From contig CAZXEQ010000011.1 of NCBI GenBank assembly GCA_964640155.1, positions 1-11,366 on the forward strand: DNA of 11,366 nt, given 5' to 3'. The notes below the pieces were generated by a model. It ran no database searches. It saw nothing but the letters and a program-made list of their open reading frames with translations, and had not been told where the DNA came from. Of this stretch, positions 1 to 2,912 are shown piece by piece (within the stretch, counting starts at the first letter, position 1; every line of letters begins with the position of its first letter). The translations under genes and the position numbers were made by a program. Origin of the DNA: an uncultured bacterium. Lineage in GTDB: Bacteria > Auribacterota > JACPWU01.

Positions 1-19
1 AAATGGTCTCATTTGAAAA
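1..19. repeat. Terminal redundancy: identical to 11348-11366, the overlap expected from a linearised circular molecule
   Basis: aaatggtctcatttgaaaa occurs at both ends of the window. The identity runs to the last base, so its true length is limited only by the window edge. Confidence 0.85.
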
Positions 20-2912
20 GCAAACATCAGAAAAAGGTCTTGGGATTAAGAAATATAGTTCCTCAACCGAAAGAATTGGCACCACAGATTCCACAGGCAG
101 GCTTAATTATTACAAAGAAACAGAGCTCACCAGAACCAAGGGTGCAAAGACCACAAGAGTATGGGAATCCAGACCTGAATGGAATGGTAATACCATTGTC
201 AACGAGCACAAAGAACTCATCTATGAAAAGACAAAAACAACAGGCTTCTCTATAGGAAAACTCTTAAATTTTGTTACACCTCTACTGATGTTTGTCCCAG
301 GCTTTCAAGCATTAGCTCTACCCGTCAAAGCCCTTATTGGAGCAGCCGTAAACTTCACAGCAGGCCTTGCCACTGGACAATCCCCAGGTAACGCTCTACT
401 CGGGGCAGCAATTACATTTGGAACAGCAATGGTGGCAGGAGTAGCCAGAGGAATAGCAGATTCTGTTCTACAGAACATTCCTATCAAAGAAGCTATGAAC
501 AGCATATTTGCTGCACCTACGGGAATAGCTGCTGAGCACATAGCTCAAAACGTAACACAGACAGCAATGACAAGTCTTATTACCACATCCATTACTACAG
601 CTGTTGGTGATAAGCTTGGCCCCATTGGTAGCGCTGTGCTAGGAGGAGTCTTAGGTTCTATCACAAGCAATGACCCAACAGCTATCATTCGGGGAGCCAT
701 TAAAGGAACAGCCACAGGATTTATCAGCCAATCATTAGGAGGATCTATTGGTGGACAATTTGCTGGAGCAGCAATACAAGGAGTGAGTGATGCAGGCATA
801 GACTTAATAGGACATAACATTACAGCCTTAATTAAATCACCTGAAGGAGCAAAGCCTATATTCAGAGGACTTTCTATTGAAGGAGCTGAGCGATACAATA
901 CAAAAACAGGCATGGTTGAACATTACAACTTTGATGGAAAAGAATTCAAACTCCAATACATAGCTCCTCAACAATCAGAACTCCTAGGAAACATCAACTA
1001 CACAGGGCCTGGTACAATAGCTTTTATCCCAACTTCGATAGACATCACAGGCTCTAAAACCCACGAGAATAGCATCACAACCTATTACGACAAACAAGGT
1101 AACTTCATAGAATCAAAACCAGATAATCAGATTGCTATACGTGACTCAAATGGAAGAATCATTGCAACAGAACTACCCATATCGATGTTTACTTTAGCTA
1201 CAGGACAAGATGTTCTTTTTGCTCCCATGCTTGAGAATGGTAGTTCTCATGCACTCATGGTCATTCCATTTGGAGCACAAATAAAAACAGAAAATGGACA
1301 AATGACAGGCTCTCAAATAATGGATGAGAGCGGTAACATTGAAATTTATCGACTCAATGGAACCAAAGAAGCACGCCTAGGCATGGATGGCTCACTTATC
1401 TCCTATGATTCTAGAGGTGACATATCCTACATCATTGCTCCAGACGGCCGAGCGGCCAGTTTGACCTTTGCTCAAGATCCAATCGTTCTTACAGCAAGTA
1501 CACAAGTAGACTACGATGGAAGCGGAAACCTTGTATTAAGGGAACTCGACAATAGTTACAGAATCTATGAAAAAGGAAGTGATTTACTCATCGAGGCAGG
1601 AAATCCAGAGCTCATAAGAACTCTACAATATGACGAACAGGGAAGATTTTATGGTGCAGTAGAAGAAGACTTAAAAAACCAAAGAGAAAATCTCTATGGA
1701 GCAGATGGCCAAAGAATCTTCACACGAAGCCTACAAGATAAAATTGTAGAGAACATTTATGGCGAAGCCGCTGGATCACTAAGACAGCCCAACTCCTCTG
1801 ATGAAATCCCCATAAGAAAGTGGTATGACGCGCAAGGCAATCAAGCCCCGATTGAAGAAATAGCTTATCTTTATCAAAATAGTTATCAAACGGGCAAAAA
1901 TAAAATTTTAGAAATTTTGAATCAAGGGGCAAAATCAGCTTACTCCTTCATTGAGGCAAGCCCGATTGAAGGACCTCTTTTAAGAACCATAGCTGCAACA
2001 AAATTTGGATCTGATGCTCCGGGATGGAAAAATTATTTAGAAGGAATGCCCAAAGAAGTCTCTCTAAGAAACATTCCATCCGACATGAAGAAAAGCATGG
2101 GAGAGGCGGAATACTTTTTTAGGACATTGCCAGGGGCGTATTTTGGAGATTTGAAAGCAGAGGTAGGGGTCGCCTATCCATCGCCTTGGGTCAAGTGGAA
2201 GAATACACCCAATGTCATTACCTTTGTGCCAGGGGTAGGCAATGACGCACAAAGCACCAGACACTCGGCTCAGCTCATTGCAAACAAAGCAGGACAGCCT
2301 GTGTATTATGTTGTAAATCAAAGTCATAAAGATGATGTAACAGGGGAATTTCTAGGAACAAAGTACACCAAAGGTGCTGCAGGGACAATCGAAGATGTTG
2401 CCATACAAAGTGGAATGCAGAAAATTACAGGCATGAATGATGCAACCACGGTTGGACTCGGGATGTTGTGGAAGAATATTCTATCAAACACACCAGGCAA
2501 TGTGAAGATCATTCACTTTGGGCATAGTCAGGGAGGATTAGGAACGGCAATTGCTGCAAATTATTTTGACTCTGATAAGGATGCATTAAACCGCATTCAA
2601 TTCGGTGGAATGGCACCCGCCATTCACAAAAATCCGGGCTTTGGTGTGTACGAACCATTCATCAACCGTTACGACATGGTAGGTCATGCCCTTGGACCAG
2701 GAGGAGTGAAGACGGCATGGAATTTTGTCGCAAATCTAGGAACTATCACCTTTGGAGACTCATCTGACTTGAATCTTAGGGCTTACACCCCTGGCCATGA
2801 GACAAGTTGGAGTTGGGACATTAACCATCCCTTTGAAAAGTACAGCCTATCGGTAGACGACTTCTTTGACATGATTGAATATCCCCGCAACAAAAGGGAA
2901 GACGAGAGATGA
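3..2912 (+). CDS. Large secreted polymorphic-toxin-like protein: Gly/Ala-rich hydrophobic region, degenerate YD repeats, C-terminal alpha/beta-hydrolase (lipase-like) domain. The 5' end is split off by linearisation and the true start is probably 11125.
   Basis: 969-aa ORF. Roughly nt 260-800 encode small-residue hydrophobic segments (LLMFVPGFQALALPVKALIGAAVNF, GNALLGAAITFGTAMVAGVARGI, GPIGSAVLGGVLGSI, GGSIGGQFAGAAIQG). Roughly nt 1074-1850 encode YD-type repeats (YYDKQGNF, SYDSRGDISY, DYDGSGNLV, QYDEQGRFY, YGADGQRIF, WYDAQGNQ). The nucleophile-elbow motif FGHSQGG is at nt 2520-2537, preceded by a VPGVGND strand-like segment. Confidence 0.9.
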   Translation: MVSFEKQTSEKGLGIKKYSSSTERIGTTDSTGRLNYYKETELTRTKGAKTTRVWESRPEWNGNTIVNEHKELIYEKTKTTGFSIGKLLNFVTPLLMFVPGFQALALPVKALIGAAVNFTAGLATGQSPGNALLGAAITFGTAMVAGVARGIADSVLQNIPIKEAMNSIFAAPTGIAAEHIAQNVTQTAMTSLITTSITTAVGDKLGPIGSAVLGGVLGSITSNDPTAIIRGAIKGTATGFISQSLGGSIGGQFAGAAIQGVSDAGIDLIGHNITALIKSPEGAKPIFRGLSIEGAERYNTKTGMVEHYNFDGKEFKLQYIAPQQSELLGNINYTGPGTIAFIPTSIDITGSKTHENSITTYYDKQGNFIESKPDNQIAIRDSNGRIIATELPISMFTLATGQDVLFAPMLENGSSHALMVIPFGAQIKTENGQMTGSQIMDESGNIEIYRLNGTKEARLGMDGSLISYDSRGDISYIIAPDGRAASLTFAQDPIVLTASTQVDYDGSGNLVLRELDNSYRIYEKGSDLLIEAGNPELIRTLQYDEQGRFYGAVEEDLKNQRENLYGADGQRIFTRSLQDKIVENIYGEAAGSLRQPNSSDEIPIRKWYDAQGNQAPIEEIAYLYQNSYQTGKNKILEILNQGAKSAYSFIEASPIEGPLLRTIAATKFGSDAPGWKNYLEGMPKEVSLRNIPSDMKKSMGEAEYFFRTLPGAYFGDLKAEVGVAYPSPWVKWKNTPNVITFVPGVGNDAQSTRHSAQLIANKAGQPVYYVVNQSHKDDVTGEFLGTKYTKGAAGTIEDVAIQSGMQKITGMNDATTVGLGMLWKNILSNTPGNVKIIHFGHSQGGLGTAIAANYFDSDKDALNRIQFGGMAPAIHKNPGFGVYEPFINRYDMVGHALGPGGVKTAWNFVANLGTITFGDSSDLNLRAYTPGHETSWSWDINHPFEKYSLSVDDFFDMIEYPRNKREDER

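Follow-up and report, generated by a model that had tools for sequence, protein, structure and literature searches.

We analyzed contig CAZXEQ010000011.1 of assembly GCA_964640155.1, a stretch of 11,366 nt that we refer to as the window, and the long open reading frame (ORF) at positions 3-2912 with which it begins. Our best explanation, which we hold with somewhat more confidence than doubt, is that this ORF belongs to a gene for a Sec-exported, short-form toxin related to the Rhs/YD polymorphic toxins, that the toxin is coupled to an immunity gene and tipped with a hydrolase of membrane lipids, and that the pair is carried on a plasmid of Chlamydiota. The locus combines a conserved signal peptide, YD hairpins interrupted by a zipper module of ~190 aa, a second YD tract, a variable C-terminus and a downstream gene that appears to change together with that C-terminus.

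Polymorphic toxins combine a Sec signal, RHS/YD repeats, a variable C-terminal toxin and an adjacent immunity gene, and alpha/beta-hydrolase toxin tips are an established class among them (Zhang, Aravind et al. 2012, PMC3482391). The window toxin resembles these proteins in its signal peptide, its YD-type repeats and a conserved body that is followed by unrelated C-termini in its relatives. A small downstream gene that seems to change with the C-terminus and an orphan cassette at a related locus are further points of likeness. Unlike them, the window toxin lacks an Rhs core and the PxxxxDPxGL motif, places a hydrophobic helical module of ~190 aa between beta tracts, ends in a domain that fits no described toxin family, occurs in few Chlamydiota genomes and is plasmid-borne. 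What distinguishes it is this combination of a lineage-restricted, plasmid-borne, Sec-dependent Rhs-like toxin with a conserved internal hydrophobic module and an orphan C-terminal domain.

Extent and architecture of the probable toxin gene

The window is a circular contig. Its bases 1-19 are an exact copy of bases 11348-11366, which gives a true circle of 11,347 bp and agrees with the first-pass annotation, a reading of the letters alone that had spoken of a tiny replicon. The window is circularly permuted, and anything near either end has to be read across the junction. The ORF at 3-2912 (969 aa) stays open upstream through the junction as far as an ATG at 11125, which is the first start codon beyond the previous stop. 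The full toxin gene runs from 11125..11347 into 1..2912, with 75 codons added in frame and a product of 1,044 aa. The ORF that had been annotated is thus real, but its coordinates are truncated and cover only the 3' 93% of the gene. Window residues EDRLNQ, upstream of the 19-nt overlap, and MVSFEKQTSEKGLGIKKYS, after it, align to an unbroken stretch of homologous protein, YDRLNQMVSF[E/Q]KQTSEKGLGIKKYS, which is conserved in the relatives P0001 and P0003 described below. Because homology runs through the junction in this way, with EDRLNQ and MVSFEK meeting where the relatives read YDRLNQMVSF, the join is on this alignment genuine and not an assembly artefact. We rejected a chance ORF because homologs exist and the locus is kept in synteny on a related plasmid.

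The added codons supply the export signal. The ORF at 3-2912 itself begins MVSFEKQTSEK and has no signal peptide at its start. Codons 1-30 of the full gene (nt 11125-11214) encode a predicted Sec-type signal peptide, MFNCTKRSKIISILLSICQLLWCLPTDVKA, with cleavage before A (then AIEIQ). Its n-region is basic, a hydrophobic core of 15 residues follows, and the cleavage site is of the small-x-small type (VKA, cut before A). Kyte-Doolittle values exceed 1.5 at residues 8-29 of the full protein. The peptide is recognizably kept in three relatives, P0003 (MKKFIASLLSILQLFWSIPEDLFA), P0004 (MQQILSSLLAAVQIFWAMPIDLKA) and P0005 (MIKILSSVLATLQIFLSIPIEAQA). Composition, motif and conservation therefore point to the N-terminal trafficking signal expected of a polymorphic toxin. 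The signal peptide named in the first-pass annotation does exist, but it lies in the upstream extension, outside the ORF to which it had been assigned.

We modeled the conserved body with AlphaFold2 (AF2) from a 7-sequence alignment, at a mean predicted local distance difference test (pLDDT) score of 53. Residues are numbered below along the ORF at 3-2912 unless the full protein is named. The N-terminal hairpin segment forms strands at residues 2-79 (pLDDT 60-75), and a run of helices follows at residues 85-277 (pLDDT <50). Residues 76-275 consist of 40-54% Gly, Ala, Ser or Thr and 8% charged residues, so that the hydrophobic tract of about 200 such residues described earlier is borne out, and 16 of the 24 small-xxx-small-xxx-small motifs of the whole protein sit here. 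The layout begins with two or three strongly hydrophobic helices, behind which come amphipathic ones rich in Gly, and the most hydrophobic stretch is bilobed (residues 162-198 and 205-225 of the full protein). Of the ten columns that are invariant across the seven aligned sequences, eight are Gly, Ala or Leu inside this tract, a pattern that points to constraint on how the helices pack. The module has no meaningful relative in Pfam or the Protein Data Bank (PDB), and solved pore-formers show no similarity to it. We infer that it serves membrane insertion or translocation.

The second beta tract contains the YD repeats. Residues 290-640 contain five copies of the motif YDxxG[NRSDQK], where 0.13 are expected, and none of 2000 shuffles reaches that number. 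The YD repeats noted in the first pass accordingly hold up as motifs, and the Pfam RHS_repeat profile (PF05593) stays below significance in the middle region of the window protein (11.7 bits, E 0.38, under the 22-bit cut-off). P0002 exceeds this threshold with 26.7 bits, and one repeat block of P0003 scores 17.4 bits. The AF2 model is beta-rich at residues 284-480 (pLDDT 60-88). When the conserved body was compared to the PDB with Foldseek, the top two matches were Rhs proteins, 7pq5 (E 5e-5) and Tse5 (8cp6, E 2e-4). The TM-scores of these matches are only ~0.1, so the resemblance to Rhs is local, confined to hairpin repeats, and does not extend to the cocoon. Beta hairpins total only ~350 aa in the model (residues 1-79 and ~284-560), too few for a closed shell.

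The sequence motifs of Rhs proteins give the same picture. PxxxxDPxGL occurs in no family member, and neither DPxGL nor DPxG[L...] is found in the window protein, in line with the earlier observation that a DPxGL autoproteolysis boundary is missing. Isolated DPxG[hydrophobic] tetrapeptides occur in the family members P0003, P0004 and P0006. NCBIfam returned no Rhs core-domain match in the window protein. We rejected canonical Rhs membership on these grounds: the protein lacks the core and autoproteolysis motif and has too few repeats for a cocoon.

The Rhs effectors behind the Foldseek matches, Pseudomonas aeruginosa Tse5 (8cp6) and a Photorhabdus Rhs with Tre23 (7pq5), are the best structural matches of the beta tracts, and in Tse5, too, Rhs repeats occur together with a membrane-active hydrophobic segment (PMC10684867). 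Besides the low TM-scores and the small number of hairpins, the window toxin differs from both in having no PAAR/VgrG link and no N- or C-terminal autoproteolysis motifs. Its hydrophobic segment is internal rather than an encapsulated C-terminal toxin, and it carries a Sec signal in place of delivery by a type VI secretion system (T6SS). Two other assignments were rejected. CdiA-like two-partner secretion finds no TPS/FHA Pfam match in the protein and no CdiB-like gene on the 11.3-kb circle, and the T6SS Tle class finds no Tle-family or VgrG/PAAR/Hcp Pfam domain in the protein or the plasmid. The claim that the layout is not that of a canonical Rhs, CdiA or Tle protein was therefore correct, as the defining features of all three are absent.

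Table 1. Features of the window. Residues follow the ORF at 3-2912; two-part genes are read across the circular junction.
Feature	Position (nt)	Strand	Basis or remark
Toxin gene, 5' end	11125..11347	+	First 75 codons, including the junction-spanning codon; in-frame extension on the circularized sequence
Toxin gene, remainder	3..2912	+	969 codons plus stop; five homologs in 1.84 billion representative proteins
N-terminal beta-hairpin segment, aa 1-79	3..239	+	YD-like (DSTGRLNYY); in all family members
Hydrophobic Gly/Ala-zipper-rich helical module, aa 85-277	255..833	+	Composition, zipper motifs, family conservation
Beta-rich tract with degenerate YD repeats, aa 284-613	852..1841	+	Five YDxxG motifs; AF2 strands; Foldseek
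Orphan C-terminal toxin domain, aa 724-969	2172..2909	+	Alignment with P0003 C-terminus; candidate small alpha/beta hydrolase
Ser842 codon, candidate nucleophile	2526..2528	+	In GHSQGG (nt 2520-2537); invariant in P0003
Asp891 codon, candidate catalytic acid	2673..2675	+	INRYDMVGH; from conservation and position only
His932 codon, candidate catalytic base	2796..2798	+	YTPGH; from conservation and position only
Candidate immunity gene, 214 aa	2909..3553	+	ATGA overlap; role from position and co-variation in relatives
Protein with two transmembrane helices	3581..3865	+	Gene called as 94 aa (ATG 3581); 101 aa from TTG 3560
DnaG-type primase, 856 aa	5793-8363		Zinc ribbon and Toprim fused to a ~500-aa C-terminal domain with no family match
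Two tandem tyrosine recombinases	8579-9520 and 9504-10418		17-nt overlap
BrnT-like toxin and CopG/BrnA-like antitoxin	10476-11029		Type II pair directly 5' of the large toxin gene
Assembly overlap, 19 nt	11348..11366	.	Duplicate of bases 1-19; marks circularity

Exchangeable C-termini and the downstream gene

We searched exhaustively for relatives of the toxin with phmmer (HMMER) over 1.84 billion representative proteins. Five were found in all; a word-index search gave two. Those that carry names all stem from metagenome-assembled genomes (MAGs) labeled 'Chlamydiae/Chlamydiota bacterium'. P0001 has 1,493 aa, P0002 1,440 aa (partial) and P0005 1,016 aa (partial). P0004 (1,288 aa) is a short form in which the signal peptide leads almost directly into the core, and P0003 reaches 7,589 aa, of which the last ~980 residues align to the whole query at 49% identity. 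Species-representative genomes, two scans of JGI metagenomes and IMG/VR yielded no further member, and tblastn of the toxin protein against PLSDB plasmids found no match. These searches show the family to be truly rare.

The relatives share a core that extends from residue 1 to about residue 480 at 31-58% identity. Beyond it, the C-termini of P0001, P0002 and P0004 are unrelated to that of the window protein, which matches P0003 only. A conserved N-terminal and central part with unrelated C-termini is the pattern of polymorphic toxins. The C-terminal regions of P0002 and P0004 are homologous to each other (32% identity over 466 aa, E 8e-39), and so are the small ORFs with two transmembrane helices directly 3' of them (42% identity, E 9e-24). 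The window has both a different C-terminus and an unrelated downstream ORF, so that C-terminus and downstream gene appear to co-vary over these three loci.

Two relatives show how such loci are put together. At the P0004 locus (L013, 7130-8519), a 163-aa ORF with two transmembrane helices, homologous to the one downstream of P0002 (L001, 4473-5015), is followed by a 181-aa orphan Rhs C-terminal (Rhs-CT) cassette and an 84-aa ORF that again has two transmembrane helices. The 181-aa ORF carries the canonical Rhs core motif PLNWTDPWGL and then a short unique tail; with the small membrane ORF behind it, this makes a typical orphan toxin cassette. The contig that encodes P0004 is chromosomal and comes from a groundwater Chlamydiae MAG; a primase C-terminal fragment and an integrase lie upstream of P0004, surroundings that look like an integrated plasmid remnant. 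P0003 begins with the family signal peptide, continues through ~4,300 aa of degenerate YD-type repeats and then contains two divergent core copies (at aa 4697 and 6603), each leading into different sequence. The 1,044-aa form in the window is thus a compact, tractable version of a module that is present twice in P0003. After the first of these core copies we noticed the motif HxxQDSxxxxH (HLIQDSYASGH), which is also found in the P0004 tail (weak DUF6765 match, E 0.003).

Identity between the window protein and P0003 is mosaic, with 78-95% at residues 361-600 (nt 1083-1802) and 20-65% elsewhere, and this pattern suggests recent recombination among family members. The first-pass annotation had proposed a new delivery format. 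Its description of the protein as non-canonical, apparently exported and toxin-like stands, but the protein is no one-off; it fits the known polymorphic-toxin paradigm because its family has exchangeable C-termini and downstream genes that appear to co-vary with them. These features also bear on the proposal that the protein is no toxin at all and instead belongs to the cell surface or envelope, anchored in the membrane; its C-terminal domain would be esterase-like or have no catalytic role, and the gene would be passive plasmid cargo. In favor of this proposal, searches of Pfam, NCBIfam and the PDB recognize no toxin, lipase or immunity family. We nevertheless regard it as highly improbable given the exchangeable C-termini and their apparently co-varying genes, the neighboring orphan Rhs-CT cassette, the recombination suggested by the mosaic identity to P0003, and the same position of the gene on two related plasmids.

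In the window, the ATG of the 214-aa gene overlaps the TGA of the toxin gene as ATGA, which implies translational coupling. The 214-aa protein has an N-terminal signal or anchor with a lipobox-like VKGC and matches no known family. Its gene recurs in assemblies of at least four independent public sequencing runs. The four loci returned, plasmid fragments L002-L005 from Logan runs SRR19881398, DRR784965, SRR31893870 and SRR30863653, show 100% identity to the window. The protein with two transmembrane helices encoded behind it has no family match; speculatively, it is a second immunity protein or an accessory membrane protein.

A different division of labor would make the zipper module itself toxic, forming pores or acting as an ionophore in the manner of Tse5-CT, the CdiA-CT ionophores or EsxX. 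In that case the C-terminal domain would be accessory, and the protein encoded at 3581-3865 would provide immunity. Glycine-zipper toxins that depolarize membranes and are paired with small immunity proteins of the membrane have been described (PMC10684867, PMC11630599, PMC12744356), the invariant positions of our family are Gly/Ala, and ORFs with two transmembrane helices come after the toxins in the window, L001 and L013. Tse5 is also among the top Foldseek matches, though through its Rhs shell. We consider this explanation decidedly unlikely. In this family it is the C-termini that vary, and the module occupies a conserved place inside the protein, the reverse of where a toxic domain usually sits. 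Moreover, the window ORF with two transmembrane helices is not homologous to those beside P0002 and P0004 (E 0.6-3.8) even though the module is shared, and the module does not resemble solved pore-formers in sequence.

A candidate hydrolase tip and its possible action

The only homolog of the C-terminal domain is the tail of P0003, at 45% identity over residues 565-969. Motifs conserved between the two are VITxxxGVGNDA, NxSHKD, KIIHxGHSQxG, INxxDxVGH and YTPGH. Word-index searches with the C-terminal domain alone and with a 2-sequence profile returned nothing significant, and hhalign of the C-terminal profile revealed no kinship with the C-terminus of P0001, which reads AHSMGA. The GHSQGG elbow of the first-pass annotation is present, and its Ser codon lies exactly where it had been placed. 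The surrounding sequence, VKIIHF-GHSQGG-LGTAIAANY, has the form of a nucleophile elbow, Sm-x-Ser-x-Sm-Sm (Sm, small residue) between a strand and a helix. Ser842, Asp891 and His932 are invariant in P0003, each is preceded by a hydrophobic strand-like segment, and their order is that of a canonical alpha/beta hydrolase, which makes them a candidate catalytic triad.

Comparisons with known hydrolases converge on the elbow. Ser842 falls in register with the catalytic Ser of hydroxynitrile lyases, the Thermomyces lanuginosus lipase and the Burkholderia cepacia lipase. Three of five weak PDB matches (E 0.3-0.9) are alpha/beta-hydrolase hydroxynitrile lyases aligned at this point. The best Pfam match of the domain is Hydrolase_4 (E 0.14), on a 90-aa fragment.

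The first-pass annotation had likened this motif context to that of family I.2 lipases, and the heptapeptide GHSQGGL is indeed identical in the B. cepacia/glumae enzymes (1hqd/3lip). We compared the domain by hhalign to the B. cepacia lipase, whose sequence was validated against PDB 1hqd/3lip, and to the T. lanuginosus class-3 lipase, validated against 1dt3. The former aligned over 65 columns round the elbow (alphaB, beta5, elbow, alphaC and beta6; probability 56%, P ~1e-4), and the latter over only 17 elbow columns. When the flanks were shuffled and GHSQGGL was kept, scores averaged 31.4 +/- 3.0. The real sequence scores 38.8, a value attained by 4 of 100 shuffles, so the elbow flanks add only marginal support. 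The candidate triad is spaced differently from that of family I.2 (Ser-Asp 49 and Asp-His 41 residues, versus 177 and 22), and we found no Lif foldase-like gene on the plasmid. We rejected family I.2 membership for these reasons: the match is centered on the elbow, the triad spacing differs and the foldase is missing. The comparison was correct for the heptapeptide; overall homology, spacing and foldase did not follow.

On sequence grounds, the C-terminal domain is plausibly a small serine alpha/beta hydrolase. From the earlier proposal of a lipase-type alpha/beta hydrolase, the elbow motif and the Ser, Asp and His residues kept in P0003 stand, and a significant profile or structure match is lacking. 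With Pfam, NCBIfam and the PDB yielding nothing significant and an AF2 model of the domain at pLDDT 31, the lipase assignment stays at the level of a motif. The missing fold match is a failure to detect and no evidence of another fold. With one detectable relative among 1.84 billion proteins, a solved or confident structure of this domain would define a new toxin domain family.

If our preferred explanation is correct, Sec would take the toxin to the periplasm, where the product of the 2909-3553 gene, itself exported or lipid-anchored, would neutralize the C-terminal domain. The toxin would then leave the producer cell by some release route. The Gly-zipper module would insert into the target membrane, and the C-terminal enzyme would be anchored there or carried across. 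This enzyme, most likely a small Ser842-Asp891-His932 alpha/beta hydrolase, would attack membrane lipids. The plasmid would thus act like a bacteriocin plasmid, with toxin and immunity directed against competitors in the same host or niche. Such a scheme shares with the T6SS Tle1-4/Tli systems a GxSxG motif and an adjacent exported or lipoprotein-like gene, fitting action on the periplasmic side. Unlike Tle1-4, the toxin comes with a Sec signal of its own and a large body for delivery, and it has no Tle-family Pfam domain and no T6SS genes beside it on the plasmid. Colicin-type bacteriocin plasmids are also small and carry a modular exported toxin as main cargo, followed by small membrane or lipoprotein genes. 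The plasmid described here differs from them in having no sequence relationship, in its primase-type replicase, two tyrosine recombinases and BrnT/BrnA genes, and in its host from an intracellular lineage.

Several points weigh against this explanation. We identified no secretion or release route beyond Sec. Chlamydiota are obligate intracellular bacteria, and a bacterial target is therefore not obvious. The predicted structure of the hydrophobic module is of low confidence, the co-variation of toxin and downstream gene is drawn from very few loci, and the immunity role of the 214-aa protein is assigned by position only, with an atypical lipobox (K at -2). For the C-terminal domain, sequence and profile searches with the whole domain and with fragments gave no significant match to an alpha/beta-hydrolase fold in Pfam, NCBIfam or the PDB, and the hhalign match to the B. 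cepacia lipase is mostly the heptapeptide. P0003 reads GHSQDG, with Asp where a small residue is normal. The first-pass annotation had suggested running Foldseek on an AlphaFold model to find the Ser-Asp-His triad. This did not succeed, as the model from a 2-sequence alignment was unusable and nothing was matched below E 2.

The intracellular lineage also raises the question of whether the toxin is aimed at the host. As a host-directed effector, it would insert its bilobed segment into the vacuole or another eukaryotic membrane, its hydrolase would have lipids or proteins of the host as substrates, and the gene downstream would be unrelated or code for a chaperone. Assignment to Chlamydiota speaks for such a role, as does the bilobed hydrophobic stretch, since Inc proteins likewise insert in the host-derived vacuole. 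Zhang et al. further considered toxin domains of amoeba endosymbionts, including an alpha/beta-hydrolase family of Parachlamydia, to be probably aimed at host molecules (PMC3482391). Those authors, however, argued for host targeting from the absence of immunity genes, and here a coupled downstream gene appears to co-vary with the C-terminus, which is a hallmark of toxin-immunity pairs. The conserved, cleavable Sec-type signal peptide is also unlike the type III secretion of Inc proteins. We think a host-directed effector unlikely.

Returning to the polymorphic-toxin explanation, a bolder form of it can be stated, which we find doubtful. In this form, the YD sheet, the 190-aa Gly-zipper and the second YD sheet would make up a self-contained Chlamydiota delivery cassette that brings interchangeable enzymes into or across a target membrane and operates without type V, VI or VII secretion machinery, cocoon or autoprotease. 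The replicon would be the first bacteriocin-type plasmid of an intracellular lineage, serving competition among bacteria within one host cell, and its toxin would carry an undescribed serine-hydrolase tip. A Gly-zipper module between YD sheets could reveal a way for toxin domains to enter membranes that differs from the Rhs cocoon mechanism. If the toxin and its neighbor function as a pair, an intracellular lineage either wages bacteriocin-like conflict or delivers a membrane-active enzyme to hosts, in both cases from a mobile element.

Plasmid backbone and host lineage

The other genes of the circle encode a helix-turn-helix regulator, a DnaG-type primase, two tyrosine recombinases and a BrnT/BrnA pair (Table 1). 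The primase fusion probably serves as the replicase. Among plasmids, its closest relatives come from Leptospira and share only ~34% identity with it. The BrnT-like protein scores below the Pfam cut-off (31.7 versus 34.5 bits). Known chlamydial plasmids have a conserved set of maintenance genes, Pgp1-8 and ParA, with type IV secretion genes in some lineages (PMC7846284). We detected no Pgp1-type helicase and no ParA on the plasmid. The tandem recombinases are reminiscent of the chlamydial Pgp7/Pgp8 pair, a likeness of arrangement only. In contrast to the maintenance genes of known chlamydial plasmids (PMC7846284), the main cargo here is a toxin-immunity-like pair.

We found a syntenic 10.4-kb contig (L006/L014) in the groundwater Chlamydiae MAG that also encodes P0004. 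The primases of contig and window share 72% identity, the regulator, recombinases and small genes are present as well, and P0005 occupies the position of the toxin, running off the contig end. Comparison of the plasmid backbone DNA to PLSDB gave no match. On this comparative evidence, the plasmid probably belongs to an uncultured member of Chlamydiota and carries the toxin as its cargo.

An Rfam search of the window found nothing except sub-threshold hairpin matches at inverted repeats. The large intergenic region contains perfect inverted repeats one inside the other, with 20-nt arms (3959-3978/4103-4122) around 16-nt arms (4037-4052/4068-4083), which may represent an origin or terminator. 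Non-coding DNA at 3966-4303 and 4526-4742 is 71% and 77% identical to L006, compared to 69.5% for the primase gene. Identity at or above that of the primase gene suggests that these regions contain functional elements, such as an origin, iterons or a small RNA.

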